A stretch of 64,000 bases of DNA from contig CAZMAT010000004.1 of assembly GCA_964564435.1 (NCBI GenBank), forward strand, positions 8,928-72,927. The letters run 5' to 3'. The position numbers and the translations under genes were made by a program. The notes below the pieces were generated by a model. The model was not told the DNA's origin. It saw only the letters and a list, made by a program, of their open reading frames with translations, and did no database searches. Origin of the DNA: an uncultured bacterium. GTDB lineage: Bacteria; Fermentibacterota; Fermentibacteria; Fermentibacterales; Fermentibacteraceae. Positions 1-28,718 of the stretch are shown in pieces (within the stretch, counting starts at the first letter, position 1; every line of letters starts with the position of its first letter).

Positions 1-526
1 GGGGGTGGACACCTCGGGCGCTCTCTGCAAGAGCGGCCGTGTTCTGGGGAACGGAACCCGCAGCGACATCGCCGACATCGTCTTCGTGAAGCCGGATACC
101 TTCCAGGCCGCGAACACGAAGCTCATAGCCCGGGAGATCGACTCGTTCAACGCGGCCCTCGCGAAGGAGGGCAGGCCGTACCTGCTGGCAGGTCCCGGCC
201 GCTGGGGATCGTCCGATCCGTGGCTGGGCGTCCCCGTGAACTGGAGCCAGATAAGCGGGGTGAAGGCGATCATCGAGGTCACTCTTCCCGGGATGAATGT
301 CGATCCGTCTCAGGGGTCGCACTTCTTCCAGAACATGACTTCGCTCCGGATAGGATATTTCACGGTGTCGCACTCCGACGCGTCGGAGACGATGGACTGG
401 CAGTGGCTCCTGTCCCTGCCCGCGGCGGGGGAGACCGCATCGGTGAGGCATGTAAGGCTCGAGAATCCCCTGACCGTCATGATAGACGGAAGGAGCGGGC
501 AGGGGCTGGTGCTCAAGCCGCGCTGA
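1..526 (+). CDS. hypothetical protein, 5'-truncated at window start (C-terminal 173 aa)
   Basis: The frame is open from the window edge to a stop at 524-526. Codon usage is GC3-rich like the neighbouring genes. I recognise no diagnostic motif. Confidence 0.4.
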   Translation, partial: GVDTSGALCKSGRVLGNGTRSDIADIVFVKPDTFQAANTKLIAREIDSFNAALAKEGRPYLLAGPGRWGSSDPWLGVPVNWSQISGVKAIIEVTLPGMNVDPSQGSHFFQNMTSLRIGYFTVSHSDASETMDWQWLLSLPAAGETASVRHVRLENPLTVMIDGRSGQGLVLKPR

Positions 527-550
527 GGGAAAGGCGGAGAATCTCCGGAG

Positions 551-1423
551 GTGTCAGTGGAACCCGGCAGGATCGTATCGAAGAAGCCGGCAGGCCCCGA
601 CGTGACGATGTACACGGTGTTCGCGCCCGACATCGCGCGTCGTCGCAGACCCGGCCAGTTCGTGATAGTGAGGATCTCGGAACCCGGCGAGCGCATCCCG
701 CTCACGATCGCGGACGCCGATCCCGGAGCCGGGACCGTGAGCCTCGTCGTGCAGTCCGTGGGCAAGTCCACCAGGCAGATGGCGATGCTCGAGGAGGGCT
801 CGGGCCTGCAGGACATCGCAGGCCCCCTGGGCACGCCGACTCGCATCGAGAAGTTCGGTACCGTGATCTGCTGCGGCGGCGGCATAGGCACGGCGCCTCT
901 GTATCCCATCACGCAGGCGCTTCACGAGGCCGGCAACAGGGTCCTGACCGTGCTGTGCGCCAGGACCGCCGGACTCCTGGTGATGGTGGAGGAGATGGAG
1001 AAGGTCAGCGACGAGGTGCTGGTGATGACCGACGACGGCTCCAGGGGCACGAAGGGGCTTGCCACTGACGGGATCAGGATCGTCGCGGGGCGCGAACCCG
1101 TCGACCATGCCTTCGCCATCGGCCCCCCCGTCATGATGAAGTTCGCGAGCGCCGTCACCAGGGAGCTCGGCATACCCACGACCGTCAGCCTGAACCCGAT
1201 AATGATAGACGGCACCGGGATGTGCGGTTGCTGCCGGGTGACGGTCGGAGGCAGGACTCGGTTCGCCTGCGTCGACGGACCGGAGTTCGACGGGCACCTG
1301 GTGGACTTCGACGAGCTGATGAGGCGGCTTTCTGCGTACAGGGACCACGAGCGCTCGGCCATGGAGCATTTCGAGGGCGGTTGCAGGCTCACCGGATCGG
1401 GGGGACATGGAAGCGAAGGATAG
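551..1423 (+). CDS. nfnA: NfnA/SudB-like subunit (FAD/NAD(P)-binding, C-terminal CGCCR [2Fe-2S] motif; PyrK-like fold)
   Basis: GTG start at 551. Length is 290 aa. It has a GGGIGxAP dinucleotide-binding motif and a C-x-C-C cluster motif near the C-terminus. It overlaps the downstream GltD-like gene by 17 nt. Confidence 0.8.
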   Translation: MSVEPGRIVSKKPAGPDVTMYTVFAPDIARRRRPGQFVIVRISEPGERIPLTIADADPGAGTVSLVVQSVGKSTRQMAMLEEGSGLQDIAGPLGTPTRIEKFGTVICCGGGIGTAPLYPITQALHEAGNRVLTVLCARTAGLLVMVEEMEKVSDEVLVMTDDGSRGTKGLATDGIRIVAGREPVDHAFAIGPPVMMKFASAVTRELGIPTTVSLNPIMIDGTGMCGCCRVTVGGRTRFACVDGPEFDGHLVDFDELMRRLSAYRDHERSAMEHFEGGCRLTGSGGHGSEG

Positions 1424-2867
1424 GCTCGCGATACCGCCCCAGCCCATGCCGGAGCAGGCTCCTTCGGAGAGGGTCGGGAACCTGCGCGAGGTCCCCCTCG
1501 GCTTCACGCCTGAGACGGCGATGGTCGAGGCGAGGCGCTGCCTGCAGTGCAAAAAGGCGTTCTGCACCGAGGGATGCCCCGTGGGAGTGGACATCCCGGG
1601 CTTCCTCGAGGCCGTGGAGAGGGGCGATTTCGCGTCGGGCATCGGGATCATCAGGCGGAGGAACGCGCTCCCCGCCGTCTGCGGCAGGGTCTGCCCGCAG
1701 GAGCAGCAATGCCAGCTCGCCTGCACGGTGGGCAAGTTCCACCACGACCCCGGGAAGTCCGTGAGCATAGGCAGGATCGAGCGCTTCCTCGCGGACTGGG
1801 AGAGGGAGGCCGGGGCGGCCCAGGCTTCCGTCAAGGCTCCGCCCACCGGCAGGAGGGTCGCCGTCATCGGGAGCGGCCCGGCGGGGCTCACCGTGGCGGG
1901 CGACCTCATCCTCCTCGGGCATTCCGTGACTGTGTTCGAGGCCCTCCACAAGGCCGGAGGCGTACTCGTCTACGGCATCCCGGAGTTCAGGCTCCCCAAG
2001 GCCATCGTCAGGCGCGAGGTGGAGCTGCTCGAGAATCTCGGGGTCGAGTTCAGGCTCGACACCATCGCGGGCAGGACCCGCCCCGTGGACGAGCTGGTGC
2101 GCGAGTACGACGCCATGTTCATCGGGTCGGGCGCCGGGCTCCCCAAGTTCCAGGGGATCCCGGGAGAGAACCTCCTGGGGGTCTATTCGGCCAACGAATA
2201 CCTGACCAGGGCCAACCTGATGAAGGCTTACGACTTCCCGGCGGCGGACACCCCGATCCAGAGGGGGAGGACAGTGGTGACGGTCGGGGGGGGCAACGTG
2301 GCGATGGACTGCGCCAGGACGGCCCTCAGGATGGGCGCCGAACGATCCCTCGTCGTCTACAGGAGGTCCGAGGCCGAGATGCCGGCCCGCCGCGAGGAGG
2401 TGCACCACGCCCGGGAGGAGGGCGTCGAGTTCCACCTGCTGGAGAATCCCGTCGAGATCACCGGAGGGCCGAAGGGCTGGGTGGAGGGCGTCAGGATCGT
2501 GCGCATGACCCTCGGCGAGCCTGACTCCTCCGGGCGCCGCAGATCCATCCCGATCGAAGGTTCGGAATTCGTGCAGGAGGCCGACGAGGTGCTGGTGGCG
2601 ATAGGGAACAGCCCGAATCCGCTAGTCCCGTCGTCGTTCCCCGAACTGGAGACCACACGGTGGGGCGGCATAGTCGTGAACGAGGCGACCGGGCAGACCT
2701 CGGTCAGGGGGGTCTTCGCCGGCGGAGACATAGTCCTCGGCGCGGCCACCGTGATCCTCGCGATGGGGCAGGGCCGCATAGCCGCGCGCGCGATGCATGC
2801 ATACCTCTCCACCGGAAGGTGGGAGGGGCTGGAAGAGATAACCGGAGCGGAGGGGGGCCAGAGTTGA
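1407..2867 (+). CDS. nfnB: NfnB/SudA-like, glutamate synthase small-subunit-type NADPH oxidoreductase (2x[4Fe-4S] + FAD + NADPH)
   Basis: 486 aa. Two Cys clusters are present (CLQCKKAFCTEGCP and AVCGRVCPQEQQCQLAC). GSGPAGL and GGGNVAMD Rossmann motifs and a GGDIV motif match GltD/NfnB. Confidence 0.85.
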   Translation: MEAKDRLAIPPQPMPEQAPSERVGNLREVPLGFTPETAMVEARRCLQCKKAFCTEGCPVGVDIPGFLEAVERGDFASGIGIIRRRNALPAVCGRVCPQEQQCQLACTVGKFHHDPGKSVSIGRIERFLADWEREAGAAQASVKAPPTGRRVAVIGSGPAGLTVAGDLILLGHSVTVFEALHKAGGVLVYGIPEFRLPKAIVRREVELLENLGVEFRLDTIAGRTRPVDELVREYDAMFIGSGAGLPKFQGIPGENLLGVYSANEYLTRANLMKAYDFPAADTPIQRGRTVVTVGGGNVAMDCARTALRMGAERSLVVYRRSEAEMPARREEVHHAREEGVEFHLLENPVEITGGPKGWVEGVRIVRMTLGEPDSSGRRRSIPIEGSEFVQEADEVLVAIGNSPNPLVPSSFPELETTRWGGIVVNEATGQTSVRGVFAGGDIVLGAATVILAMGQGRIAARAMHAYLSTGRWEGLEEITGAEGGQS

Positions 2868-3856
2868 AGGGCAGGGTGCTGATAATCGACGACGAAGCCG
2901 AGATAAGGCGCAACCTGACTGTGGGTCTGACCCAGGAGGGGTATGGCGCCACCGCCTGCCCCGACGGCATCTCCGCCATACATGAGCTGAACAGGGCGGG
3001 CACCGCCGGCGAGGGATACGACTTCCTCGTCACGGACATATTCATGCCCGACATCGACGGGATGAAGATCCTCAAGGTCATCAAGAACCAGTACCCCGAC
3101 CTGCCGGTGCTCGTGATCACGGGCTTCGGCGACGACAGGCTGAAGTACACCGCCCTCTCCGAGGCCAACACCGCCTATCTGGACAAGCCCTTCGAGATCG
3201 ACGACCTGGTGCGGGCGCTGGAGTCGCTGTCCCCGGGGGCGGCCACAGGGGCGCCCGAGGCGTCGGCGCACGGGGGCGAACCGGTCGTCAGGGAGTCCGT
3301 GAGCGCCTATCTGACGGTGAGGATCACCGAGCCGGACAGGAGCATGGAGATCTTCAACGACCTGAGGTCCCTGGAGGGCGTCCAGTCATGCGACGCGGTG
3401 CGGGGCGACGTTGACATCATCCTGCTGGGGCAGGCCTCCTCCGAGGAGGGGATCAGGGCGATCTTCTCCCGGGTGGGCGCGGTGCGCGGCGTGGAGGTCG
3501 TCTCCGTCTCGCCCGTCGAGAGACCCAGGCTGGACAGGGACGTCAGCGAGTTCATCGAATCCTACCGCAGGACAGTCAAGGTCCAGACCGGGGCCGAGGC
3601 CAGGAGGCAGCCGGGGACCACCAGCTACATCATAGCGGACATAGACCCGGGCTCGATCCAGAAGATCTTCACCACGGTCTTCTTCATCGACGAGGTGATC
3701 TTCTGCGACGTGATAGACGGCGGCAGGAGGCTGGTCGGGATGATCACGGGGCAGGGGGCCGTGGGCAGGACTCCGAGGATCGTCGAGAAGCTGAGCCAGA
3801 TCGACGGCGTTCTCAGGGTGCGCGAGGCCAGAGTCATCCGACTCGTCGACGAGTAA
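2864..3856 (+). CDS. response regulator with N-terminal receiver domain and two C-terminal RAM (Lrp/AsnC-type ligand-binding) domains, no DNA-binding domain
   Basis: TTG start overlaps the nfnB stop. The receiver motif reads LIIDDE...D...FMPDIDG...KP. The C-terminal half carries two repeats with the AsnC-C-terminal pattern (hydrophobic strand, then GxxDiil, then VxxV). Confidence 0.7.
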   Translation: MKGRVLIIDDEAEIRRNLTVGLTQEGYGATACPDGISAIHELNRAGTAGEGYDFLVTDIFMPDIDGMKILKVIKNQYPDLPVLVITGFGDDRLKYTALSEANTAYLDKPFEIDDLVRALESLSPGAATGAPEASAHGGEPVVRESVSAYLTVRITEPDRSMEIFNDLRSLEGVQSCDAVRGDVDIILLGQASSEEGIRAIFSRVGAVRGVEVVSVSPVERPRLDRDVSEFIESYRRTVKVQTGAEARRQPGTTSYIIADIDPGSIQKIFTTVFFIDEVIFCDVIDGGRRLVGMITGQGAVGRTPRIVEKLSQIDGVLRVREARVIRLVDE

Positions 3857-3872
3857 AGGACCGGGAGCACCT

Positions 3873-4382
3873 ATGGCCCAGGAATCGTTCAACTACAGGC
3901 TGTGGCGGTACGACGGCGCTCCGGGCGAGCTGATCCCGCTGCTCCAGTCGGCCCAGGAGCACTTCGGGTACATCCCCAGGGGCGCGATAAGGCACATCTC
4001 CTCCGTGACGGGGGTGCCCGAGGCGACGATCTACGGCGTCATCACGTTCTACAGCCAGTTCAGGCTGCAGCCGATGGGCCGGTTCGTCATCCGGATCTGC
4101 GACGGGACGGCGTGTCACGTCTCGGCCTCGAGGCAGCTCCTCGACGCTATCAGGGACGAGCTCTCCATCGAGATAGGCGAGACCGACTCCGAGAGCCTCT
4201 TCACGCTCACCACGGTGGCCTGCCTCGGATGCTGCTCCCTCGCTCCGGTGATGATGATCAACGACGAGACATTCGGCAGGCTCACACCGGCCGCCGTGAG
4301 GAAGATCCTGAAGGACTTCCGCCGCCGCCGCGACGCCGAAGGGAACGGATCTGCCGCAACCGGATGCGGGGTGGAGGCATGA
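3873..4382 (+). CDS. NuoE/HydC/StnA-like thioredoxin-fold [2Fe-2S] subunit
   Basis: 169 aa. The CDGTACH and CLGCC cluster motifs are typical of the NuoE 24-kDa family. An ATGA overlap couples it to the next gene. Confidence 0.85.
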   Translation: MAQESFNYRLWRYDGAPGELIPLLQSAQEHFGYIPRGAIRHISSVTGVPEATIYGVITFYSQFRLQPMGRFVIRICDGTACHVSASRQLLDAIRDELSIEIGETDSESLFTLTTVACLGCCSLAPVMMINDETFGRLTPAAVRKILKDFRRRRDAEGNGSAATGCGVEA

Positions 4383-6151
4383 AGAGGATAATCGTCGGAA
4401 TGGGGACATGCGGGCTCTCCGCGGGGGCGCAGGCATCGTACGATGCGCTGAAGCCGCTCGCGGAGGGTTCCGGATGCGAGCTCTCGATCTCCGGCTGCAT
4501 CGGGATGTGCTTCAGGGAGCCGCTGGTCGAGGTGCGCGACGGAGACAGGTGCTTCGTGTACGGAGAGGTCACCCCGGAGAGGGCTGCCGAGATCTGGAGG
4601 CGTCATGTGCAGGGCGGCGAGGTCGTCTCCGACTGGGTGATCCATTCCCGCGGTCCGGGATGCGTGGACGGCGGTACGGAGAAGGACTTCCTCTCGCTCC
4701 AGAAGAGGATCGTCCTGCGCAACTGCGGCATCATCAACCCCGAGTCCATCGCGGAGTACGAGGAGGCCGGCGGCTATGCCGCCCTCCGCAGGGCGCTTTC
4801 CGCGATGACACCCGAATCGATCATCCAGGAGATCAAGGATTCCGGGCTCAGGGGCAGGGGAGGCGGAGGGTTCCCGACCGGGCTCAAGTGGTCCCTCGCC
4901 GCGGCGAACCCCGGTGACGTCAAGTACCTGGTCTGCAACGCGGACGAGGGCGATCCGGGCGCCTTCATGGACAGGTCGGTGCTGGAGAGCGACCCCCACT
5001 CGGTGCTGGAGGGGATGATGATCGCCGCGCGGGCGATCGGGACGGCGACCGGCTACATCTACTGCCGGGCCGAGTATCCGCTCGCGATCAGGCGCCTCGA
5101 GAAGGCGCTCGCCGACGCCCGCGGCCGGGGATACCTGGGCCGGAACATACTGGGCTCCGGCATGGATTTCGACATCACGATAAAGCAGGGTGCCGGGGCC
5201 TTCGTCTGCGGGGAGGAGACCGCCCTCTTCGCGTCGATCGAGGGCGAGCGCGGGATGCCGAGGATCAGGCCGCCGTTCCCGGCGGAGAAGGGCCTCTGGC
5301 GCAAGCCGACGAACAACAACAACGTGGAGACGTACGCCAACGTCCCGTGGATCATCGCGAACGGATCGGCGGCCTTCGCTGCGATAGGCACCGAGAAGAG
5401 CAGGGGGACGAAGGTCTTCGCTCTCGCCGGAAGGGTCGCGAAGGGCGGCCTCGCCGAGGTCCCCATGGGGATGAGCATCAACGACCTGGTCTTCAGGATA
5501 GGCGGAGGCATCAAGCAGGGCAGGGCGTTCAAGGCCGTCCAGATGGGCGGGCCCTCCGGCGGATGCATACCCGCCTCGCTCGGCGACACGCCGGTGGACT
5601 TCGAGAACATCCCCAGGACGGGCGCGATCATGGGCTCGGGCGGGATGGTCGTGCTCGACGACACAACCTGCATGGTGGAGATCGCAAGGTTCTTCCTCGA
5701 GTTCACCCAGAACGAGTCGTGCGGCAAGTGCACGTTCTGCAGGATAGGCACTCTCAGGATGCTGGAGGTTCTCCAGCGCATCACCAGGGGCGAGGGCACG
5801 CCCGAAGACCTGGGCCGGCTGGACGAGCTGGCGAGGAGGATCAAGGAGGCGAGCCTCTGCGCGCTGGGGCAGACCGCACCCAACCCGGTCCTCAGCACGA
5901 TGAGGTACTTCAGGGAGGAGTACGAGGCGCACATAGAGCGCCACTCCTGCCCGGCGGGCAACTGCCTGGCGCTCGTCGAGTTCTCGATCGATCCCGCTCT
6001 CTGCACGGGCTGCACCCTCTGCGCCAGGAACTGCCCGGTGGGCGCGATCGCGGGCGAGAGGAAGCAGCCGCACAGGATCGACAAAGACAAGTGCGTGAAG
6101 TGCGGCAGGTGCATATCCAGCTGCAACTTCGGCGCCGTGAAGAAAGCGTAG
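4379..6151 (+). CDS. NuoF/HydB/StnB-like flavoprotein subunit (N-terminal Trx-like 2Fe-2S domain, FMN/NAD(H) site, C-terminal 2x[4Fe-4S] ferredoxin domain)
   Basis: It has GRGGGGFPTG (FMN), the 51-kDa signature ESCGKCTFCR and a C-terminal CTGCTLCARNCP...CVKCGRCISSC. The longer upstream in-frame extension of the 3902 ORF is Arg/Pro-rich junk. Confidence 0.9.
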   Translation: MKRIIVGMGTCGLSAGAQASYDALKPLAEGSGCELSISGCIGMCFREPLVEVRDGDRCFVYGEVTPERAAEIWRRHVQGGEVVSDWVIHSRGPGCVDGGTEKDFLSLQKRIVLRNCGIINPESIAEYEEAGGYAALRRALSAMTPESIIQEIKDSGLRGRGGGGFPTGLKWSLAAANPGDVKYLVCNADEGDPGAFMDRSVLESDPHSVLEGMMIAARAIGTATGYIYCRAEYPLAIRRLEKALADARGRGYLGRNILGSGMDFDITIKQGAGAFVCGEETALFASIEGERGMPRIRPPFPAEKGLWRKPTNNNNVETYANVPWIIANGSAAFAAIGTEKSRGTKVFALAGRVAKGGLAEVPMGMSINDLVFRIGGGIKQGRAFKAVQMGGPSGGCIPASLGDTPVDFENIPRTGAIMGSGGMVVLDDTTCMVEIARFFLEFTQNESCGKCTFCRIGTLRMLEVLQRITRGEGTPEDLGRLDELARRIKEASLCALGQTAPNPVLSTMRYFREEYEAHIERHSCPAGNCLALVEFSIDPALCTGCTLCARNCPVGAIAGERKQPHRIDKDKCVKCGRCISSCNFGAVKKA

Positions 6152-6157
6152 GCCCTG

Positions 6158-9100
6158 ATGGACACCGTCAAGCTGATCGTCAACGGGACGGAGGTCGAGG
6201 CCCGGCCGGGGCAGACGATTCTGGAAGTGGTCCGCGAGCACGGGCTGGACGACATCCCCACCCTGTGCCACTCCCCGGAGCTGGAACCGTACGGCTCGTG
6301 CTTCGTCTGCGTGGTCGAGGTGAAGGGGAGGCCCGTTCTGGTGCCGTCCTGCGCCACGCGCGTCACCGCGGGGATGGAGGTCGAGACCCGCAACGAGCGT
6401 GTCAGGGCCTCGCGGAAGACGGCCCTGGAGCTCCTCCTGTCCAACCACTACGCCGACTGCGTTTCGCCCTGCAAGCTCGGATGCCCCGCGGGGGTTGACG
6501 TCCAGGGCTATCTGGCCCTCGCCTCGATGGGAGAGACCAGGAAGGCCGTCGACCTGATACGCGAGAGCAACCCCCTCCCCGCCGTGTGCGGCAGGGTCTG
6601 CGTGCGCAAGTGCGAGGCGGTCTGCCGCAGGGCGGACGTGGACAGCCCGGTGGGAATCAATGCGGTGAAGCGCTACCTGACGGATGCGCCAGGCGTCTAT
6701 GACGGCCAGGTCGAGCGCGGGCCGCTCAACGGGAAGAGCGTCGGGATAGTCGGCGGGGGCCCCGCGGGGCTCTCGGCGGCCTGGTTCCTCGGCCGGCGCG
6801 GGTATGCCGTCACGGTCTACGAAGCGATGGAGAAGGCCGGCGGGATGGTGAGGTACGGCATCCCCGAGTACCGGCTGCCCGACGAGGTGCTCGACCGGGA
6901 GATCGACTTCGTGGCCCGCGCGGGCGTCGAGATCAGAACCGGCGTGAAGGTCGGCAGGGACATCCCGTTCGACGAACTGAGACATCTCCACGACGCCGTC
7001 TTCGTCGCGGCAGGGGCATGGGCGAGCAACCCCATGAAGGTCGAAGGCGAGTTCACGACCGCCGGGGTCGTGGGAGGCATCGAGTTCCTGCGCGAGAAGT
7101 ACCACGACAGGTCGCCCATCTCGGGCACCGTCGTCGTCGTGGGCGGCGGGAACACCGCCATGGACGTGGCGAGGACCGCATGGCGCCTCGGAGCCGACAA
7201 GGTGATCCTCCTCTACCGCAGGACGAAGGCTGAGATGCCGGCCGATCCCATGGAGATCGAGGATGCGCTGCACGAGGGGGTGGAGATCATGGAGCTCGCC
7301 GCCCCGGTGGGCATCGGGGCCGTGGACGGAAGGCTCTCCTCCCTGCGCTGCATCAGGATGAAGCTCGGCGAGCCCGACTCCTCGGGGCGAAGGAGACCGG
7401 TGCCGATGGAGGGCTCCGAGTTCGACCTGCCATGCGATCTCGCCGTGGCCGCCATAGGCCAGTCGCCTCTGCTGGAAGGGCTCGCCGGTGCCGGGGGGCT
7501 CCCCGGTACCACGAAGTGGGGCACGGTGAGCGTGGATACGGCCACCATGAAAACCGACGTCGAAGGGGTCTTCGCGGGCGGAGATGCCGCCGACGACGGC
7601 CCGACCGTGGTGATAGACGCGATAGCGGACGGGCGCACGGCCGCCCTGTCGATCCATGCGTTCCTCGGGGGCGGCGATCCGCCGCATCCGTTCATAGTCC
7701 GCAAGGACATGTGGTCCAAACCCGGCAAGGCCGAACTGGGCGACATCGCCGAGAGCCCCCGCCACGAGGTCCACATGCTGCCCGTAGCCGAGAGGGAGGG
7801 CAGCTTCTGCGAGGTGGCGACCGGGTTCGAATGGGAGGATGTCCTCCACGAAGGGGCCAAGTGCCTCTCCTGCGGCTGCCTGAGGTACGACGACTGCGAG
7901 CTGAGGCTGCGCGCGGAGGAATACGGGGCGGATGTGGCCCACTACGCCGGGCATGTCCGGAGGCACAGGCCGGACGACAGGCACCCCCACATCCTCTACG
8001 ATCCCAACAAGTGCGTGCTATGCGGGCGGTGCATAAGGACATGCGCCAGGGTGCTGCCCGTCGCCGCCCTGGGTCTGGTAGGGCGGGGCTTCCGCACGGA
8101 GATGCGGCCCGCGATGAACGACCCGCTGGTGGAGACCAACTGCGTGAGCTGCGGGAACTGCGTCGACGCCTGCCCCACGGGTGCGCTCACGGTCAGGCTC
8201 CCGTATCCCGGTAGGGCGTGCCTCGAGGTCGTAGAGCGGGCGACGCGATGCTCCGTATGTTCGATCCAGTGCCCGGTGAGGGTGATGTCGCACGGATCCG
8301 CCCGCTACTACATCACATCCTCGGGCGTGCCGGGCGACTACCTCTGCAGGTCCGGGCGCTTCGCGAACGAGCTCTACATCTCGAGCAGGCGCATTTCGGC
8401 CCCCTCGGTCAGGCGCGGAGTCGAAACCGTCGTGACCGATGCCTGTTCCGCCGTCCGGGAGGCAGTCACAGGGCTCCGGAAGGCGGCAGCGGAATACGGC
8501 CCCGGAGCCGTGGCGGTCTTCGTGTCGGCCGAATCCACGATCGAGGAGATGCACCTGGCCTCGCGGATCGCCAGGGAGGGCCTCGGGACGGGGAATATCG
8601 GCTCGATCGCCGCGTCGTGCTCGTCATACGACCCGGCTGCCCTGGACGGGATGCTCGGGTTCACCGCCTCGACCGCCGGCCGGGAGGCCCTGGCGCAGGC
8701 CGACCTCGTGATCTGCAGCAACACGAGCCTGGAGGGCGACCATCCCGTGCTGGCCGTCGACATCCTCGAGGCCGTCCGGAAGAGGGGGGCCGGACTCGTC
8801 GTGGTCAACTCGGCCCTGGACGACGCCGACCGCATCCTCTCGCACGCGGTGCTCGACCCCGTAAGAGGTACGGCCTCCGTCCTCTGGGCCGGCATCGTTC
8901 GCAGGCTCGCCGAGACGGGCTCAGTCACGAAGGAGGCGGTCGCGTCCGTCCCAGGCGGGGGAGAGTTCCTATCGAGCCTGGGGCGAACGTTCGAGGAGGC
9001 CTGTGCCACGGCCGGGGTCGATCCCGGCTCTGCCCTGGCGGCAGTCGAGGCGATAGCCGGCGCGTCCCGAATCGTGATCATACACACGCCGGACAGGGCG

Positions 9101-9856
9101 CGCGACAGGGCCAGGGGCGACCTGGAGATCCTGGCCGGGCTCGCCGTGCTCGCCAACGCATCGGGCAGGCGGGCGGACATCCTGCTCCCGAGAGTGCTCC
9201 CGAACGGCGCCGCCCTGGAGGTGGCCGGAGCGTCTCCAGCATTCCTGCCCGGGCGCAGGCAGGCCGGGGAGAGGGAGGGGCATCCGGATCTCGCCCGGGC
9301 TCTCGAGGACGGCTCCATCAGGGCCGCTCTCGTGATTGGAGAGGATCCTCTCGGCAGCGACCGTACGGCCACCTGGTTCAGGAATGTCGAATTCCTCGCG
9401 GCCCTGGACTGGGCCTCCACCGAGACCACCCGCGCCGCCGGCGTCGTGCTCCCCGGATCGACCGGGCTCGAAGGATCGGGCACGAGGCTCGACTTCACCG
9501 GCTCTGCAAAGGCTTTCAGCAGGGCGGTAGCGCCGCCCGCCGGAATCGGAACGGCCGGCATGCTTGCGATGATAGCCGGGGAATGCGGCATCTCAGCCGA
9601 CTTGGAGACGATCGGTACGACCGTGAGGAAAGCGCTGGAAGCCGGATCCCCGGGGGTGGCGGGCTTCTACTGGAACGATGGAGTTCATCCCGTCTGGGAC
9701 GGAAAGGGCAGGCTCGGGCCGGTCGAGACGGGGCTCGAGCCCGGCAGGTTCTGCCCCCCGCTGACGGTGACTGCGCAGTACAGGGCCGGGATCGCAGAGG
9801 TCGGCAATGCCCGCTACCGCGTCCAGTCCGGTGTCAGAGGAAAAAATGTCAAGTAA
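6158..9856 (+). CDS. StnC-like large subunit: NuoG-type N-terminal [2Fe-2S] + inserted GltD-type FAD/NADPH oxidoreductase module + His/Cys [4Fe-4S] cluster domain + C-terminal molybdopterin-oxidoreductase-like (degenerate) domain
   Basis: 1232 aa. Residues ~1-80 read CHSPELEPYGSCFVCVVEV. Residues ~90-520 carry GGGPAGL, VVVGGGNTAMD and GGDAADD, like GltD/NfnB. HILYDPNKCVLCGRCIRTC and CVSCGNCVDACPTG follow. I see no TSCCP, MPCxxK or ExMACxxGC H-cluster motifs. Confidence 0.8.
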   Translation: MDTVKLIVNGTEVEARPGQTILEVVREHGLDDIPTLCHSPELEPYGSCFVCVVEVKGRPVLVPSCATRVTAGMEVETRNERVRASRKTALELLLSNHYADCVSPCKLGCPAGVDVQGYLALASMGETRKAVDLIRESNPLPAVCGRVCVRKCEAVCRRADVDSPVGINAVKRYLTDAPGVYDGQVERGPLNGKSVGIVGGGPAGLSAAWFLGRRGYAVTVYEAMEKAGGMVRYGIPEYRLPDEVLDREIDFVARAGVEIRTGVKVGRDIPFDELRHLHDAVFVAAGAWASNPMKVEGEFTTAGVVGGIEFLREKYHDRSPISGTVVVVGGGNTAMDVARTAWRLGADKVILLYRRTKAEMPADPMEIEDALHEGVEIMELAAPVGIGAVDGRLSSLRCIRMKLGEPDSSGRRRPVPMEGSEFDLPCDLAVAAIGQSPLLEGLAGAGGLPGTTKWGTVSVDTATMKTDVEGVFAGGDAADDGPTVVIDAIADGRTAALSIHAFLGGGDPPHPFIVRKDMWSKPGKAELGDIAESPRHEVHMLPVAEREGSFCEVATGFEWEDVLHEGAKCLSCGCLRYDDCELRLRAEEYGADVAHYAGHVRRHRPDDRHPHILYDPNKCVLCGRCIRTCARVLPVAALGLVGRGFRTEMRPAMNDPLVETNCVSCGNCVDACPTGALTVRLPYPGRACLEVVERATRCSVCSIQCPVRVMSHGSARYYITSSGVPGDYLCRSGRFANELYISSRRISAPSVRRGVETVVTDACSAVREAVTGLRKAAAEYGPGAVAVFVSAESTIEEMHLASRIAREGLGTGNIGSIAASCSSYDPAALDGMLGFTASTAGREALAQADLVICSNTSLEGDHPVLAVDILEAVRKRGAGLVVVNSALDDADRILSHAVLDPVRGTASVLWAGIVRRLAETGSVTKEAVASVPGGGEFLSSLGRTFEEACATAGVDPGSALAAVEAIAGASRIVIIHTPDRARDRARGDLEILAGLAVLANASGRRADILLPRVLPNGAALEVAGASPAFLPGRRQAGEREGHPDLARALEDGSIRAALVIGEDPLGSDRTATWFRNVEFLAALDWASTETTRAAGVVLPGSTGLEGSGTRLDFTGSAKAFSRAVAPPAGIGTAGMLAMIAGECGISADLETIGTTVRKALEAGSPGVAGFYWNDGVHPVWDGKGRLGPVETGLEPGRFCPPLTVTAQYRAGIAEVGNARYRVQSGVRGKNVK

Positions 9857-9955
9857 TCGGATTGGAGTCATGGATCGCCGGAACACTCGGGAGAACTGAA
9901 TACCAGTACGAGCATAAACATAAGTACAGCAACATTATATGCTCTGTGAGCATTC

Positions 9956-9984
9956 TTGACGCGCAATCATATGGCGGGCATATT
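9956..9984 (+). promoter_or_regulatory. candidate sigma70-type promoter for the TonB-receptor gene (TTGACG-17-CATATT) in an AT-rich 190-bp intergenic island
   Basis: This is the only AT-rich stretch between 9857 and 10044. The -35 element matches 6/6 and the -10 element 4/6. An RBS (AAAGGGGGGA) follows before the ATG at 10045. Confidence 0.35.
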
Positions 9985-10044
9985 GGAAATGGGTGAGTAC
10001 AGTGCATTTTATCCTCTGACACCGGACGGAAAGGGGGGGACGAG

Positions 10045-12414
10045 ATGATGGTTGTTCTTTTCTGCGCCGTACTTGCGTCGTCACAGGCGGATCAAGGTGT
10101 GACTTCCGCCGTCGTACCACGTGACTCCGGTACTGCTGTCGCCGGTCTTCCGGCGCTCGCAGAGGACAACCCCGGGCCCCTGCCCGGGCTGGTGACGGCC
10201 CTCGACGGAATGCACCACCGCGGCTGCCAGGCCGGAGGCATCGCGTCGCTGCTCGATGGATTCCCCGCCTGGTCGGCGCTCACGGGAGAGCCCTTCCTGA
10301 TAGCCCCTTCGGCCGCCGTCGAGAAGGAGGCCATCCTGACAGGCGGCCGGGCAGCAGGCGTCTTCTCCGGCCTGTCGGGTGCGACCGCCATCGTCACCAG
10401 AGCGCCCGAAACCCCGGGGCTTTCGGGTGAGGCCAGCTTCGGGATGGGTTCCATGGAGACCGGCGACATGACGCCTCTCTGGCACCCCCTCGTCCCCTCG
10501 CACGAGACGCGCCCCCTGCTCGAGGACTGCCTCACCGCCTCAGCAGCGGTCGAGGGGGCCGCGGAAGGCGTGATGCCTGGCCTGACCACGGTGCTCGTCT
10601 CCGGGGAGTTCGTCACATCCGGACCCGCCGACGCCGATGACGGCTCCTGGCGCGAGAACTGGGACAACAACGGCTACGAGAGATGGGAAGGCCTCGCGAG
10701 GCTCGGCTGGATCAAATCCGAATCCTTCGATGCGGACATCACCTTCGCCCTTCACGAGAGGGAGAGGGGCTGGTCGGACTGGTCCTGGAGCAGGTTCGAG
10801 GATCTCTACGTCGACCCCGAACCGTCGTCGCCGACGTACGGAGACACTCTCGGCGGTGGAGTCGGCATCGACTGCTCCCTCCCCACCCGCTACGACGAGG
10901 GATCGCTCGTCGGGCTCGATGCGAGCTTCGGCCTCGGTTCCTCCGGGACCCTCGGCGCCTCCCTGGCTGTGACCGGATCACGGATCTACACGAGGATCGA
11001 CGACCCCGCGGGGGGATATCTGGGCGAAGGCCTCGACGAGGAGTGGGAGTGGGCGGGCTACACACCTCCGGAACTCATCCTCGATTCTGACGGATTCGTC
11101 CGCAGCGGCGTGAGCGACCTCCTCTGGTACGACTCCGAGGACGATGCGCTCTCCGCAGGGCTCGACTGGAGCCTCGCCGCGGGGCGGCATTCCATCTCCG
11201 CCGCTTCAGGTCTGATACTGCACGACATGGAGGAGACCTGCGTCACCCTGCTCGACTCCCAGACAACCGTGGCCTTCCAGGAATGGGAGGCCTCCCCGAA
11301 GGAGGGCTTCCTCTCGGCAAGCGACGCGATCGACCTCTCCGGCGGTCTCGCAGTGACCCCCGGGCTGCGGCTGGGCTTCTTCGATCCCGCGTTCGACTTC
11401 ACGGAACTACCCATGCCCATTCCGCCGGGAGCGAACACCGGCGGCCCGTTGCCCGGCGGGAGCCTCTCGACCGAAGCCTCCGCGAAGACCTGGCTGGACA
11501 TGTCCCTGGCTGTCGTCCAGAGGCTCGACGCCCATCATTCCGTCACCGTCGAGTACTCGCGCGTTTCCAGGATGCCCCGCCCGGTCTTCCTCTACCCCGG
11601 CACGGATTCGATCCTCGTGAGCGAAGGCCAGTTCGTGGGCAACCCCGATCTCGACCCCGAGCGATGCTCCGATTTCTCGCTAGGTCTCTCCCGGACATGC
11701 CCCGGCCGCGGCGAGATGGGAGCATCCGTCTTCTACCGCACCATGGACGACCTGGTGAGGACCGAGCTGCGGGAGGACCCCGGCCAGGGCTCGTACCGCC
11801 AGTTCGACAACGGGGCGACAGCCACCGTGCAGGGTCTCGAGGTCTCCCATCGTGCAGGCCTGTCCGACTGGCTGGCCTGGTCCGCCACATACACGCTGAG
11901 CAAGGCCGAGGGCACCTGGTCGGTCCTCCAGCGGCCCTCGGACTATCAGTGGGCGACGCCCTGGATCTCCGAAGCGGACGAGTTCCCCCTGGAATGGGAC
12001 CGCAGGCACTCCCTGGACCTGTCGCTGACCAGTGAGTTCCCCGCCGGCTACGGCGCCCTGGGAGGGCTCGGAGCCGGGCTCGACTGGAGCTACGCGAGCG
12101 GATTCCCGCTGGATACGTCGTATTACGGCGAGGCTCCGGCGACCAGGAACGCGGAGCGGTACCCAGACATGACCAGGCTCGATGCATCCGTCTGGAAGCG
12201 GCACAGGCTGGGAGGCCTGGATCTGACCCTGAGGCTCGACGTCGTGAACGTTTCACAGGAGCGGAACATCGCCTGGGTGGTCGACCCGGAGTGGTACTTC
12301 GCCGAGCTGGGGGGTGACGGGGATCCGGAACTCGATCCGACGGGAGCCATGCATAACAGCCACGCCTTCGCCTCCCCGAGGCACTTCATGCTGGGGCTCT
12401 CGATAGGCTGGTAG
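10045..12414 (+). CDS. TonB-dependent receptor-like outer-membrane beta-barrel protein
   Basis: It has a signal peptide (MMVVLFCAVLASSQA). A plug-like N-terminal region reads SLLDGFPAWSALTG...GVFSGLSGATAIVTRAP. The C-terminal aromatic ending is ...GLSIGW. Confidence 0.6.
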   Translation: MMVVLFCAVLASSQADQGVTSAVVPRDSGTAVAGLPALAEDNPGPLPGLVTALDGMHHRGCQAGGIASLLDGFPAWSALTGEPFLIAPSAAVEKEAILTGGRAAGVFSGLSGATAIVTRAPETPGLSGEASFGMGSMETGDMTPLWHPLVPSHETRPLLEDCLTASAAVEGAAEGVMPGLTTVLVSGEFVTSGPADADDGSWRENWDNNGYERWEGLARLGWIKSESFDADITFALHERERGWSDWSWSRFEDLYVDPEPSSPTYGDTLGGGVGIDCSLPTRYDEGSLVGLDASFGLGSSGTLGASLAVTGSRIYTRIDDPAGGYLGEGLDEEWEWAGYTPPELILDSDGFVRSGVSDLLWYDSEDDALSAGLDWSLAAGRHSISAASGLILHDMEETCVTLLDSQTTVAFQEWEASPKEGFLSASDAIDLSGGLAVTPGLRLGFFDPAFDFTELPMPIPPGANTGGPLPGGSLSTEASAKTWLDMSLAVVQRLDAHHSVTVEYSRVSRMPRPVFLYPGTDSILVSEGQFVGNPDLDPERCSDFSLGLSRTCPGRGEMGASVFYRTMDDLVRTELREDPGQGSYRQFDNGATATVQGLEVSHRAGLSDWLAWSATYTLSKAEGTWSVLQRPSDYQWATPWISEADEFPLEWDRRHSLDLSLTSEFPAGYGALGGLGAGLDWSYASGFPLDTSYYGEAPATRNAERYPDMTRLDASVWKRHRLGGLDLTLRLDVVNVSQERNIAWVVDPEWYFAELGGDGDPELDPTGAMHNSHAFASPRHFMLGLSIGW

Positions 12415-12420
12415 CGGCGA

Positions 12421-15437: not shown

Positions 15438-15600
15438 GGAGGAATCCTTCACGATCGGGTGGTCCGTACCGCTGCGGATTATAGGACCGCCTGCGCCGGC
15501 CGAGCAAGCAAGAAGGGGCGCGGGAACCCGGTCGAAACCCGTCCCCCCGCGCTCCTGCGGAGCTATAATGCCCGCAGCCCGCAGAACCGGAAGGAATCGC

Positions 15601-16614: not shown

Positions 16615-16642
16615 CCGATGCCCGGCGTGCCGTCGGGCGGGG

Positions 16643-17356: not shown

Positions 17357-17429
17357 CCGGGCCTTCCTGTCTCTCGGTAAGAATGCGGGAAGCTACTCCA
17401 GTCCCTCCCGCGGCGCAAGGATCCGACGC

Positions 17430-19178: not shown

Positions 19179-19179
19179 A

Positions 19180-20175: not shown

Positions 20176-20176
20176 G

Positions 20177-21616: not shown

Positions 21617-21750
21617 CGGCCGACCTCTTTCGCAAATGGTTGCAGAATATGGCAGCCCCCGCCCGGCCGTGCCAACGCGGTTCTGCCCGGGAGAACCGGG
21701 ATATGTCCGGGCTCGTGCTTGTACACGACTCCACATGGGGCTATACTGAT

Positions 21751-22197: not shown

Positions 22198-22211
22198 CGG
22201 AGGGAGTCCCC

Positions 22212-23111: not shown

Positions 23112-23213
23112 AGCCCTGCGGGGCTGCCGCTGCCCCGGGAGCCTTGCACACAGGCCCCCGATGGAATAAACTCGCAGAAAGGAGGCAGGGAGGGGTTCCG
23201 GCATGGCAGAACC

Positions 23214-23243: not shown

Positions 23244-23279
23244 CCGTGTCCACCAACCATTCGCCAGAAGGAGGAATCG

Positions 23280-25323: not shown

Positions 25324-27330
25324 ATGATCAGGACTTCCGACCTCTACTCGTTCATCGAGAGCAACTACGAGTTCCTCATGGCGGTCGACTCGAGCGAGAC
25401 CGTTGTGCATTCGAGCCGCCTCCTCCTCCGCGCCTGCGGACCCGGCGAGCTGTCCCACGAGGGGCGGAGGCTCGAACAGATCCTCTCCGCGGCTTCGCTC
25501 AGGAGCATGCGTTCGGGGATGGCCCTGGCTAAGGAGGGGCAGAGGAGGCTCGCGGTCTTCTCGCCCGTCGAGTTCCCCTCGTGCGAGATCCCGCTCAAGA
25601 CCGGCTATGTCGGAAGCTCCGAGGGTGACGGCGTCTGGGTCTTCTTCGGCTCCCAGCTCGACGGGATCAACAGGCAGACGGACTTCGACCGCGAGGAGAG
25701 GATCAAGGAGCTCGCCTGCCTGTATGCAGTGGCCGAATGGATCGAGATCTCCAGCGATGTCCCGGAGTTCTTCACGAAACTGCCCGACTACCTCGGCAAG
25801 GGGATGCTCTATCCCGGGCAGGTGATGGTCTTTTCATCATATCAGGGCCGCGAGTACGGACAGATGCCCCCGGGCGAGGGCTACATCTCCACCAAGCTGC
25901 TGTCGAACCAGCAGATAGCGGGCGAGATAAGGGTGGGGTACGCCAATCCGGCGCTGGAGCTCCTCCCCGAGGAACAGAGGATGCTGAGCGAGATAGGAAG
26001 GATGCTCAACCTCGCCCTGGAGCGCAAGGAGCTGCGCGACAGGATGATCCTCAGGCAGGAGGAGGAGGCGGCCTTCACCCGCCGGTTCGCCGAGATGCAG
26101 TCCGAGATCGAGGCGCGCACCGGTGAGCTCGAGCTGCAGAAGACCAGGCTGGACATGGTGAACATGTACCTGGAGAACGTCGACAGGGGGTGGAACGAGT
26201 CATCGGCGCAGCTCGCCTCGATGTTCCAGGCCATCCCGGACGACGTTGCCGTCGTTGATCTGGACAGGAACATCGTGATGACGAACCGGGAGGGCACCTC
26301 CAGCGGGAAGTGCCATGCCCAGTTCTTCGGCAGCGACACGCCGTGCACCGACTGCCGCCTTTCGAGGATCAGGAGGGACAAGACCCCGATCGTCCACACC
26401 ATCAGGTCGGGCAGCCGCTTCCTCGAAGTCCACGCCATCCCCGTTTTCGACCGTGACCGGGAGGTCGAGGGCATCATCGAGTTCTACAGGGACGTCACCC
26501 TCGAGAAGACCTACGAGCAGCAGATCCAGCAGGCGGACAAGCTGGCCTCGCTGGGTCAGCTCGTGAGCGGTATCGGCCACGAGATCAACAATCCGAACCA
26601 GTTCATACGCGGCAACATAAAGATCATCCGTCAGGCGCTCGAGGACATCCTCCCGATAGTGGACGACTACGCGGCGGCCCATCCGGACCTGAAGGTGGCG
26701 AAGCTCAGGTACGACTTCTTCAGGAGCAACATCCTCACGCTTGTGGACGACATGGCGCACGGCTCCGAGAGGATAAGGGGCATAGTCGAGGGCCTCCGGA
26801 ACTTCGCCCGGAAGGACGAGGGGCTCCTGGTGGACAGGGTCGACGTCAACACCCTGATCCAGGCCGCATCCCGGCTGGTGGCCAACGAGATCCACAAGCA
26901 TGCCGACATCGTGATGGACCTGGACCCCGGAATCCCCACCTTCGAAGGGAATGCCCAGAAGATCGAGCAGGTCATTGTGAACCTTCTGGTCAACGCAGCC
27001 CAGGCGATGCCCGACGACAGGCGGGGAACCGTCTCGGTGAGGACGGGAGCATCCGACGACGCCGTGGTCATCGAGGTGAAGGACGACGGCAGGGGCATGA
27101 ACGAGAAGACGCTCAGGCAGATCTTCGATCCCTTCTTCACCACCAAGAGGGCGAAGGGCGGGACGGGACTGGGGCTGCCCATAGCGTACAGGATCGTCGA
27201 GGAGCACGGGGGAACCATCTCCGTGAACTCCACGCCCGGAGTGGGCACGGTCTTCACCGTCTCCATCCCGGCGGGTCCGGCGGCGCCCGGAGCGGCAGTC
27301 CGCGCCGAGACCCGCACCCCGGAGGCATGA
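25324..27330 (+). CDS. cytoplasmic sensor histidine kinase (PAS/GAF-like sensory region, HisKA + HATPase_c)
   Basis: An SD (GGAGGGTGGG) precedes ATG 25324. It has the H-box GHEINNP and the N, G1 and G2 boxes (NLLVNAAQA, DDGRGM, GGTGLGL). There are no TM segments. Confidence 0.85.
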   Translation: MIRTSDLYSFIESNYEFLMAVDSSETVVHSSRLLLRACGPGELSHEGRRLEQILSAASLRSMRSGMALAKEGQRRLAVFSPVEFPSCEIPLKTGYVGSSEGDGVWVFFGSQLDGINRQTDFDREERIKELACLYAVAEWIEISSDVPEFFTKLPDYLGKGMLYPGQVMVFSSYQGREYGQMPPGEGYISTKLLSNQQIAGEIRVGYANPALELLPEEQRMLSEIGRMLNLALERKELRDRMILRQEEEAAFTRRFAEMQSEIEARTGELELQKTRLDMVNMYLENVDRGWNESSAQLASMFQAIPDDVAVVDLDRNIVMTNREGTSSGKCHAQFFGSDTPCTDCRLSRIRRDKTPIVHTIRSGSRFLEVHAIPVFDRDREVEGIIEFYRDVTLEKTYEQQIQQADKLASLGQLVSGIGHEINNPNQFIRGNIKIIRQALEDILPIVDDYAAAHPDLKVAKLRYDFFRSNILTLVDDMAHGSERIRGIVEGLRNFARKDEGLLVDRVDVNTLIQAASRLVANEIHKHADIVMDLDPGIPTFEGNAQKIEQVIVNLLVNAAQAMPDDRRGTVSVRTGASDDAVVIEVKDDGRGMNEKTLRQIFDPFFTTKRAKGGTGLGLPIAYRIVEEHGGTISVNSTPGVGTVFTVSIPAGPAAPGAAVRAETRTPEA

Positions 27331-28718
27331 TGGGCGATCCTGCGAGGATTCTGATAGTCGACGACGACGCGGCGGTGACCAACTTCCTCACCGTGTTCCT
27401 CATGCAGACGGAGAGATACGAGCCCGTCGTGACCAACGACTCGAGGAGGGTCCCGGCCCTCCTGGAATCGGAGAGGCCCGATCTGGTCCTGCTCGACATG
27501 GACATGCCCGGGCTGAGCGGGATCGACATCCTGAGGCACATCCACGACAGGGAGGTCGGAGTGCCGGTGATCGTCCTCACCGGTGTCAGCGACATCGACC
27601 TCGCCGTGAAGGCCATGAAGCTCGGCGCGTTCGACTATCTCACGAAACCCGCCGACGACGGGATGCTCCTCGACACCATGGACAGGGCGCTGGAGCACGG
27701 CGCCCTGAGCAGGTCCCTGGAACGGCTGCCGGATGATACCAGCCGCGAGGAGCTGTCGGATCCCGAGGCCTTCGAGCCGCTGATCTCGAACCAGCCTTCG
27801 CTCCGGAATCTCTTCCTCAGAGCCGGGATGATCGCCGCGGGCGACTCGCCCGTCCTTATCCACGGCGAGCACGGGACGGGCAAGGAGGCGCTGGCCAGGG
27901 CGATCCACAGGGCCAGCAGGCGGAGGGAGGGCCCTTTCACCTCCTTCGATGCTGCTGCAGTCCCTTCGGAAGCGCTGCCCGGAGAGCTCTTCGGGATGGT
28001 GAGGGACTTCAGCGGCAGCCAGGATGACAGACCCGGCTTCCTCGAAGCCGCCTCCGGGGGCACACTCTTCCTCGACAGCATCGAGCTCCTGTCCCCCCAG
28101 GTGCAGACCCGCCTGCGCAGGGTCATGCAGAACGGCGAGTTCTACAGGGAGAGATCGGCTGAGATCAGGGGGATCGACCTGAGGCTGGTCGTCTCCACCG
28201 CGGTCGATCTCGACTCGGACGAGTACAGGGAATCCTTCTCGCGGGACCTGCTGTACCATCTCATGGTCAACTCCCTTGCGATCCCACCACTGAGGGAGCA
28301 TCCCTCCGACATCCCGCTGCTGGCGGTCCACTTCGCGAGGCAGGCGGCGGAGAAGGCGGGGAGGGCTCCGGTGAACCTTTCGGCCCCTCTGCTGGCTGCG
28401 CTCTCCCAGTACGACTTCCCCGGCAACGTCGAGGAGCTGGAGTCCATCGTCGGGCACTGCATCCTGAACACGCGGCCCGGCGTCGAACCCGGGCCTGAGA
28501 GCCTCCCGCCGTTCACACTGGTGAGGATGATGGGGGCGGGTGCGCGAACGTCGTTCGTCCCCTCGAGGCTCGATGAAGTCATATCGCAGTACGTGGCCCG
28601 GACGCTCGCGCATTTCGGCGGCGACGCGGAGCGGGCGTCGGCTGCACTCGGACTCACGGTCGAGGAACTCGGCAGACTGCTCGCGAACGGCGGGGGGGAG
28701 CCGGTCACTCCCCCCTGA
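27327..28718 (+). CDS. NtrC-family response regulator (receiver + AAA+ sigma54-interaction-like domain + C-terminal HTH) with degenerate GAFTGA loop
   Basis: ATGA overlaps the kinase gene. Walker A (GEHGTGKE) and Walker B (GTLFLD) are present. The ELFGHEKGAFTGA position reads ELFGMVRDFSGS. Confidence 0.85.
   Translation: MMGDPARILIVDDDAAVTNFLTVFLMQTERYEPVVTNDSRRVPALLESERPDLVLLDMDMPGLSGIDILRHIHDREVGVPVIVLTGVSDIDLAVKAMKLGAFDYLTKPADDGMLLDTMDRALEHGALSRSLERLPDDTSREELSDPEAFEPLISNQPSLRNLFLRAGMIAAGDSPVLIHGEHGTGKEALARAIHRASRRREGPFTSFDAAAVPSEALPGELFGMVRDFSGSQDDRPGFLEAASGGTLFLDSIELLSPQVQTRLRRVMQNGEFYRERSAEIRGIDLRLVVSTAVDLDSDEYRESFSRDLLYHLMVNSLAIPPLREHPSDIPLLAVHFARQAAEKAGRAPVNLSAPLLAALSQYDFPGNVEELESIVGHCILNTRPGVEPGPESLPPFTLVRMMGAGARTSFVPSRLDEVISQYVARTLAHFGGDAERASAALGLTVEELGRLLANGGGEPVTPP

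Follow-up and report, generated by a model that had tools for sequence, protein, structure and literature searches.

A receiver–double-RAM response regulator as a candidate regulatory partner of an Stn/NfnABC-type electron-bifurcating transhydrogenase in an uncultured member of the Fermentibacterota

The gene located at positions 2864..3856 (+ strand) of a 64,000-nucleotide stretch of DNA from an uncultured bacterium of the family Fermentibacteraceae (assembly GCA_964564435.1, contig CAZMAT010000004.1, positions 8,928 to 72,927; hereafter, the window) codes for a response regulator of 330 amino acids, in which a receiver (REC) domain is followed by two RAM domains, which belong to the Lrp/AsnC ligand-binding type. 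For this protein, here called REC-RAM2, we propose, at a probability of about 0.5, a role as regulatory partner of the Stn-type electron-bifurcating transhydrogenase encoded directly downstream, on whose StnA subunit it would dock under the control of a two-component system and, possibly, of a ligand.

The link with the downstream genes was examined in a scan limited to a single genome for each species, which yielded 152 loci; 80 of them, together with two metagenome loci, were taken for the neighbourhood analysis, and a locus was considered informative when its stretch extended far enough to show the stn genes. The order REC-RAM2, stnA, stnB, stnC was found in all 81 informative orthologous loci, which are labelled as Fermentibacterota, Eisenbacteria, Krumholzibacteriota, Latescibacterota and further groups. 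This contrasted with the upstream side of the gene, where nfnAB is immediately adjacent only in the Fermentibacterota-type loci (approximately 43 of the 81), while in the Eisenbacteria, Krumholzibacteriota, Latescibacterota and other loci the cluster begins with REC-RAM2. Given that the stnABC link is invariant and the nfnAB neighbourhood is confined to one type of locus, REC-RAM2 is assigned, on the basis of gene order, to the three genes downstream and not to nfnAB. The original prediction had placed the gene in a bifurcation operon between nfnB and Stn-like genes; as regards the partner, the Stn/NfnABC trio stands, whereas NfnAB does not. The recurrence of the same architecture beside nuoEF-like genes in other genomes, which had been named there as a check, was also borne out by these loci. 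The best 120 database matches of the protein were 68–98% identical to it, all of approximately 328 amino acids, and carried no other names than ‘response regulator’ or ‘CheY-like’. With regard to conservation, median identities to the window proteins across the loci were 70% for REC-RAM2, 68% for StnA, 72% for StnB and 59% for StnC, 70% for NfnB and 58% for NfnA, and 57% and 48%, respectively, for a histidine kinase and a sigma54-type regulator of the same cluster. REC-RAM2 (70%) is thus constrained like a catalytic subunit and unlike its signalling neighbours (57% and 48%).

The downstream trio starts with stnA (3873..4382, + strand), which codes for a NuoE-like [2Fe-2S] subunit (PF01257, E=5e-49) and is the predicted docking partner. 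It is followed by stnB (4379..6151, + strand), for a NuoF-like FMN/NAD subunit with Complex1_51K, NADH_4Fe-4S and Fer4 matches, and by stnC (6158..9856, + strand), the product of which, of 1232 amino acids, combines according to Pfam 2Fe-2S, GltD-like, Fe-S and NuoG/FdhF-like (molybdopterin-oxidoreductase-like) parts. In a phmmer search, StnC matched the large subunits of the solved NfnABC/Stn enzymes (9bov_A, E=3.5e-222; Sporomusa ovata StnC, 8oh5_C, E=1.3e-200), and, because of these matches, genes 3873-9856 are identified by homology as encoding an Stn/NfnABC (Bfu-family) electron-bifurcating NADH/NADPH/ferredoxin transhydrogenase. StnC of the window is longer than its solved homologues (1232 versus 1172–1178 amino acids), and its phmmer alignment with 9bov_A ends at query residue 1156, which leaves a C-terminal tail of about 75 amino acids unaligned. 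Compared with StnABC/NfnABC of S. ovata and Caldicellulosiruptor saccharolyticus, of which the window trio is a clear homologue, this clade adds a double-RAM component that occurs free, REC-fused or StnA-fused.

The association with the enzyme also extends to distant relatives of REC-RAM2 (21–36% identity in the RAM half), which adjoin stnABC-like genes in 11 of 12 informative loci, four loci with StnA fusions being excluded from this count. Two of these relatives (L085 and L087) are fused to a receiver and keep the position next to the stn genes, and in three other loci (L086, L088 and L089) stand-alone double-RAM proteins of approximately 190 amino acids, without a receiver, are encoded upstream of the stn trio. 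A metagenome scan performed with a narrower family alignment provided eight further loci, six of them informative (L090-L095), so that stand-alone double-RAM genes were located directly upstream of an stnABC-like trio in nine out of nine informative cases (L086, L088, L089 and L090-L095).

Moreover, at least nine divergent proteins carry the double-RAM module at the N-terminus of StnA itself. The first of them, P0216 (342 amino acids), harbors the double-RAM module at residues 17-175 and a NuoE/StnA [2Fe-2S] domain at 198-332, and a search with this protein retrieved at least eight further fusions, 31–86% identical to it, with metagenome-assembled genome labels including Myxococcota and Bacteriovoracaceae. 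Among these eight, Pfam recognized PF01257 in all and PF01037 in seven, P0261 showing PF01257 alone. Profile comparison aligned the N-terminal part of P0260 with the whole RAM module of the window family over 174 columns (98.8% probability, E=1.2e-16) and that of P0264 likewise with the whole module (93%, E=3e-7). Four fusion loci, representing three proteins, were inspected: P0216 (L098, positions 7001-8029, and L099, 218-1246), P0264 (L100, 7001-8074) and P0260 (L101, 7001-8056). In all four, stnB and stnC follow the fusion gene, whose sole annotation is ‘NADH-quinone oxidoreductase subunit NuoE’, and a separate stnA is absent. By the Rosetta-stone argument, the existence of such fusions leads to the prediction that the free and the REC-fused modules bind StnA. 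The suggestion made in the original prediction, i.e., that the target is the redox complex and not transcription, is strengthened by synteny, by the genes that lack a receiver and by the StnA fusions, although it is not proven by them.

As for the regulator itself, its receiver domain (amino acids 5-119; 2876..3220, + strand) was matched by Pfam Response_reg (PF00072) with E=1.1e-21 and a score of 77.5 bits, the cutoff being 30.2. The phospho-acceptor D58, the acidic pair D9/D10, T86, Y105 and K108, the latter followed by P109, are invariant across 42 homologues; since all the residues needed for phosphorylation are present, the protein is, as judged from this conservation, a genuine phospho-accepting response regulator. 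AlphaFold2 modelled the receiver as a (beta-alpha)5 fold, with five strands alternating with five helices, and Foldseek superimposed it on the receivers of RR468, Spo0F and PhoP with a root mean square deviation (rmsd) of 1.5–2 Å. NCBIfam revealed only generic receiver similarity, the best being to CpdR, FixJ and NtrC, with scores far under the cutoffs (68.8 versus 180 for CpdR).

The C-terminal half contains RAM1 (amino acids ~143-218; 3290..3517), an inter-domain segment (~219-240; 3518..3583) and RAM2 (~250-326; 3611..3841), all on the + strand. In the window protein, PF01037 (Lrp/AsnC ligand-binding) matched residues 162-218 (E=1.7e-5, 25.0 bits), and the Pfam scan gave no match for the second RAM region. 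A direct BLASTP comparison of the two halves was marginal (E=0.023); when the profiles of RAM1 and RAM2 across the family were compared with hhalign, they aligned over 75 columns with 99.5% probability (E=3.4e-22). The family, as delimited by a HMMER full-library search with the C-terminal half, comprises 125 clusters at 50% identity, and 66 of 68 diverse aligned members matched PF01037 (best E=1.5e-25). Relatives did so at the first position, at the second or at both: P0141, for instance, matched at 256-319, and P0151 and P0186 showed two stretches each. An ACT profile was matched by one of the 68 members (E=0.0098) and by none in the window protein. Searched against solved structures, the profile of the C-terminal half retrieved Lrp/AsnC RAM domains, among them those of LrpA of Mycobacterium tuberculosis (2w25) and of DM1 of Pyrococcus (2e1a), with E of about 2e-4, and the invariant G181 and D184 of RAM1 were aligned with the ‘G-x-x-D’ hairpin of DM1 and LrpA.

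In line with these profile matches, the AlphaFold2 model of the whole protein (mean predicted local distance difference test score, pLDDT, 75; predicted template-modelling score 0.76) displayed a variable linker after the receiver, followed by two beta-alpha-beta-beta-alpha-beta units at residues 146-215 and 252-324, with helix 227-238 as the sole extra element. A Foldseek search with the C-terminal model retrieved ferredoxin-like proteins of two domains, with NirDL, which has two Lrp/AsnC-like units, and coproheme decarboxylases as the best matches; LrpA was matched as well. Together, sequence and model indicate that the output is a tandem-RAM module, in which two ligand-binding domains of Lrp/AsnC type would pair as a pseudo-dimer within one chain. 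RAM2, with its hairpin G287-x-x-L290, is more strongly conserved than any other part of the protein, and the inter-domain segment (ERPxLDRDVxxFIxxYxxxVK), which comprises the helix just mentioned and has a pLDDT of about 35–55, is nearly invariant, with R220, P221, D224, R225, D226, F230, Y234 and V238 being identical in the 42 homologues. Both the 219-240 segment and RAM2 are candidate contact surfaces for docking. No helix-turn-helix (HTH) or enzymatic domain was recognized by Pfam or NCBIfam in the window protein, the N-terminus of which is occupied by the receiver; the N-terminal winged-helix/HTH that defines a full-length Lrp/AsnC factor is hence absent from it. The domain composition given in the original prediction, a receiver plus two RAM domains without DNA-binding or enzymatic output, was accordingly supported by Pfam, by the PF01037 matches of the family, by hhalign and by AlphaFold2. 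Of the checks proposed with it, the hidden Markov model search found PF01037 to be significant in nearly the whole family and ACT to be essentially absent, and structure prediction returned a folded C-terminal half with two RAM-type units, rather than the disorder or the missing RAM profile that would have spoken against it.

The longest reading frame ending at 3856 covers 2660-3856 of the + strand. Within it, we placed the start at the TTG at 2864, which matches the MKGRVL... N-terminus common to all homologues, is preceded by a GGAG-rich stretch and shares bases with the nfnB stop codon (gTTGA); translation from this position gives the 330-residue product. The gene overlaps nfnB by 4 nucleotides and is separated from stnA by a gap of 16 nucleotides, and nfnA, nfnB, REC-RAM2, stnA, stnB and stnC are co-directional, with overlaps or tiny gaps between them. 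As no terminator-like sites were detected in window positions 1-10500, the predicted location and co-transcription of the gene between nfnB and the Stn-like genes agree with this arrangement.

A probable phosphodonor is encoded in the same conserved cluster. A PAS/HisKA/HATPase histidine kinase of approximately 660 amino acids is present on the same strand within 4.5 kb after stnC in 39 of the 51 loci with enough DNA, and clustering of flanking open reading frames located its start mostly less than about 200 nucleotides after stnC in these 39 loci; in 29 orthologous loci, it is directly followed by a sigma54-type REC-AAA+ regulator. In the window, the corresponding Pfam-assigned pair lies some 15 kb downstream of stnC: the kinase at 25324..27330 (+ strand; its start is uncertain between 25126, 25267 and 25324), which is 74% identical to the kinase directly after stnC in L007, and the sigma54-type enhancer-binding response regulator at 27327..28718 (+ strand), which overlaps the stop codon of the kinase. 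An alignment of 32 orthologues of the kinase revealed H419 and, in the PAS region, an invariant C330-x10-C341-x2-C344 motif, and a further cysteine, C132, was conserved in 30 of the 32. The kinase is, judged by its place in the cluster, the probable cognate partner of REC-RAM2, and its cysteines may point to metal, Fe-S or redox sensing. The sigma54 regulator was also considered as the driver of the REC-RAM2 operon, a possibility that we rejected, since 78 of 79 loci lack a -24/-12 element resembling TGGCAC-N5-TTGC in the 400 nucleotides upstream of REC-RAM2.

In S. ovata, a cryo-electron microscopy study ascribes to the thioredoxin-like domain of StnA, a NuoE-like subunit, the role of a redox-driven kinetic gate of bifurcation that swings in and out, and removal of the cluster of this domain abolishes bifurcation (PMC10482914). 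In the mechanism that we propose, the tandem-RAM module would be a dedicated partner of the downstream Stn/NfnABC enzyme and would dock most likely on StnA. The N-terminal receiver would have been gained in the REC-RAM2 lineage, which would allow the cysteine-rich PAS kinase to phosphorylate D58, and this phosphorylation would alter the engagement of the RAM module with the enzyme; in addition, RAM1 may bind a small metabolite. The net effect would be a post-translational tuning of NADH/NADPH/ferredoxin exchange, with transcription being handled by the sigma54-type regulator of the same system. We infer in this scheme the binding to StnA, the effect on activity, the phosphotransfer from the kinase of the cluster, and both the existence and the identity of a ligand, for which an amino-acid type is suggested only by the analogy with Lrp/AsnC. 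A bolder version, which we put forward only tentatively, is that the phosphorylated and possibly metabolite-loaded double-RAM module clamps or releases the StnA gate and thereby switches the coupling of the NADH, NADPH and ferredoxin pools within seconds; one allosteric module would then have found three evolutionary solutions, as a free, a REC-fused and a StnA-fused form.

Several observations weigh against the proposed role. The Pfam score of RAM1 (25.0 bits) equals the gathering cutoff exactly, the hairpin aspartate of RAM domains is absent from RAM2 (G287-x-x-L290), the confidence of AlphaFold2 in the C-terminal half is moderate (pLDDT 68), and the sequences all come from metagenome-assembled genomes. 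Purified Stn of S. ovata consists of three subunits only (PMC7483475); because the characterized Stn enzymes have three subunits, the RAM module is lineage-specific and dispensable for catalysis, i.e., accessory and not core. Finally, one REC-fused relative, P0141, has in L084 a related kinase and a sigma54 regulator as neighbours and no stn genes in the vicinity, from which it follows that the family has at least one further output; an architecture of the REC-RAM2 kind is thus able to feed into other outputs or to operate within the signalling pathway itself. The gene of this paralogue (L084, positions 8001-8990) is divergent from the kinase and regulator genes, and a sigma54-like element, TGGCAACCCGATTGC, is located 60 nucleotides upstream of it (7941-7955), this being the only such locus. 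Downstream of it, genes for a 445-amino-acid protein, with only sub-threshold TPR matches, and for a TPR protein were observed.

The L084 paralogue, with its kinase and regulator neighbours and its sigma54-like element, is also the chief support for the best-surviving alternative, which we regard as unlikely. According to it, REC-RAM2 never touches the enzyme and controls stn expression, either from within the two-component pathway, where it would address the kinase or the sigma54 regulator as a further phospho-acceptor, a phosphate sink or a connector that senses a ligand, or as a RAM hetero-oligomer with a full-length Lrp/AsnC factor. In archaea, stand-alone RAM proteins form associations with Lrp-like factors of full length, relatives from the PDB, DM1 for example, are among the matches of the RAM profile, and the same cluster conserves both the kinase and the sigma54 regulator, all of which would suit such a role. 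However, double-RAM genes devoid of a receiver stay upstream of stnA, with no kinase seen in the loci examined, and the module is covalently joined to StnA in several lineages. REC-RAM2 is, moreover, located at the end of the operon opposite to the kinase and the regulator, is conserved far above both of them, and lacks a sigma54 promoter upstream in almost all the loci inspected.

A second alternative, which we hold to be improbable, would see in REC-RAM2 an assembly or structural factor, i.e., a helper of the NapD or chaperone kind, or else a fourth subunit that is constitutively present, required for folding, cofactor loading or tetramer formation in this Stn clade, with the receiver timing its availability. 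The molybdopterin-oxidoreductase-like domain in the stnC product, the subunit-like conservation of REC-RAM2 and the StnA fusions of some lineages are compatible with it, as are weak matches to NapD (PF03927) in six of the 68 family members. Those matches were sub-threshold, though, and absent from the window protein, PF01037 dominating the family (66 of 68), and the N-terminus of StnC (MDTVKLIVNG) does not carry the twin-arginine signal on which a NapD-type chaperone would act. It also weighs against an assembly role that Stn has an FdhF-like domain devoid of catalytic activity (PMC10482914) and that S. ovata Stn assembles in Escherichia coli from three genes alone (PMC7483475, PMC10482914), while the intact receiver and the conserved cognate kinase argue for a switchable, non-constitutive function. 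The remaining alternative, a cofactor-binding or enzyme-like module built as a dimeric alpha+beta barrel for a tetrapyrrole or flavin, as in the siroheme decarboxylase NirDL/AhbAB, coproheme decarboxylase or chlorite dismutase, is very improbable: the Foldseek matches that suggest it, i.e., NirDL at the top (4czc and 4ch7, E of about 4e-6, template-modelling (TM) score 0.55) and coproheme decarboxylases/chlorite dismutases (E of 1e-5 to 1e-3, TM score 0.43–0.51), have only 8–15% sequence identity and an rmsd of 6–12 Å on a model of pLDDT 68, the NirDL match reflects the two Lrp/AsnC RAM domains of NirDL itself, no Pfam match to the Cld or HemQ families was obtained, and haem- or tetrapyrrole-related genes were not seen in the conserved neighbourhood.

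Returning to REC-RAM2 as a regulatory partner of Stn, its features can be compared with those of known systems. RAM domains act as dimers or oligomers, and the amino acids that they bind are located at the interfaces. With the RAM proteins of the Lrp/AsnC (FFRP) type (DM1, 2e1a/2z4p; LrpA, 2w25 and 2qz8), REC-RAM2 has in common the family PF01037, the fold and the ‘G-x-x-D’ hairpin of RAM1; it differs from them in that it lacks an HTH and, in RAM2, the hairpin aspartate, carries two RAM domains in one chain behind an N-terminal receiver, and has an enzyme complex and not a regulon as genomic partner. In terms of function, the protein is best likened to ACT/RAM-type small regulatory subunits and to response regulators that work through protein contact. 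The former, such as IlvN/IlvH of acetohydroxyacid synthase and the beta subunit of aspartate kinase, possess two ferredoxin-like ligand-binding domains, are co-operonic with the catalytic subunits, bind to these and tune them. REC-RAM2 is not a member of their family, its presumed target is a bifurcating flavin complex, and a phospho-switch has been added. CheY, CpdR and RssB are response regulators without DNA binding that act by protein contact; like them, REC-RAM2 has a canonical receiver and presumably binds a protein machine, and unlike them, its output is a module of the ligand-binding type and its predicted target a metabolic redox enzyme. The closest described architecture, and the only REC-RAM or REC-ACT entry found in the open-access and bioRxiv literature, is that of REC-NitrOD1 of Thaumarchaeota, a census entry in which a receiver is joined to an output that is related to PF01037 by HHpred, is of uncharacterized function and also exists as a stand-alone protein (Galperin et al. 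2018, PMC5847659). Like REC-RAM2, it joins a receiver to a RAM-like output; it differs in having a single domain of approximately 70 amino acids instead of a tandem, in being restricted to a narrow archaeal genus and in having no reported link with a redox enzyme (PMC5847659).

With regard to the neighbouring genes, the NfnAB enzyme of the window is encoded by nfnA (551..1423, + strand; small subunit, DHODB_Fe-S_bind match) and nfnB (1407..2867, + strand; GltD-like large subunit, Fer4_20 and Pyr_redox_2 matches). Stn and Nfn were almost mutually exclusive in a survey of acetogens (PMC7483475). In the window (551-9856), as in the approximately 43 Fermentibacterota-type loci, NfnAB and Stn/NfnABC, which have the same net reaction, occur in one co-directional cluster. 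Further upstream, window positions 2-526 hold the C-terminal part of a PPDK_N protein (pyruvate phosphate dikinase ATP-binding), the full length of which, about 990 amino acids, is seen in L005 (4282-7251). Such a protein, with a receiver-like N-terminus that was weak and sub-threshold, lies directly upstream of nfnA in approximately 21 loci, and PPDK_N proteins were also found near the stn clusters of distant lineages (upstream in L085; downstream and convergent in L100). A glutamate dehydrogenase of 450 amino acids (ELFV_dehydrog) recurs on the opposite strand, about 2.5–5.7 kb upstream of REC-RAM2, in 23 loci (L005-L040 and L085); this neighbour, which lies beyond the 5' end of the window, would be in keeping with a signal to the RAM domains that is related to amino acids or NADPH.

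On the other side of the cluster, the region 9900-25300 appears to have been inserted between stnC and the kinase gene. It contains a gene for a TonB-dependent-receptor-like beta-barrel (10045-12414) and, on the minus strand, genes for three B12-binding radical-SAM proteins (12421-13932, 13929-15947 and 20177-21736) and a family-2 glycosyltransferase (16643-17356), besides several open reading frames without a Pfam match, including one of 856 amino acids on the minus strand (22692-25262).

The electron-bifurcating Bfu enzymes, among them the HydABC hydrogenases and the Stn/NfnABC transhydrogenases, govern redox balance in many anaerobic organisms. The searchable Stn/Bfu papers (open-access and bioRxiv) describe no regulator of these enzymes and treat them as unregulated three-subunit machines. 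The arrangement of NfnAB and Stn in one operon, for its part, raises the question of how two transhydrogenases avoid futile cycling. The double-RAM module offers a concrete candidate for allosteric regulation, and one that is directly testable, since production of Stn in E. coli has been achieved and its structure has been solved by cryo-electron microscopy (PMC10482914). If the proposal is true, it would provide a characterized function for a class of response regulators that has gone unstudied, that of a receiver with a RAM-type output, and this class of enzymes would have in the module its first proposed partner dedicated to regulation.

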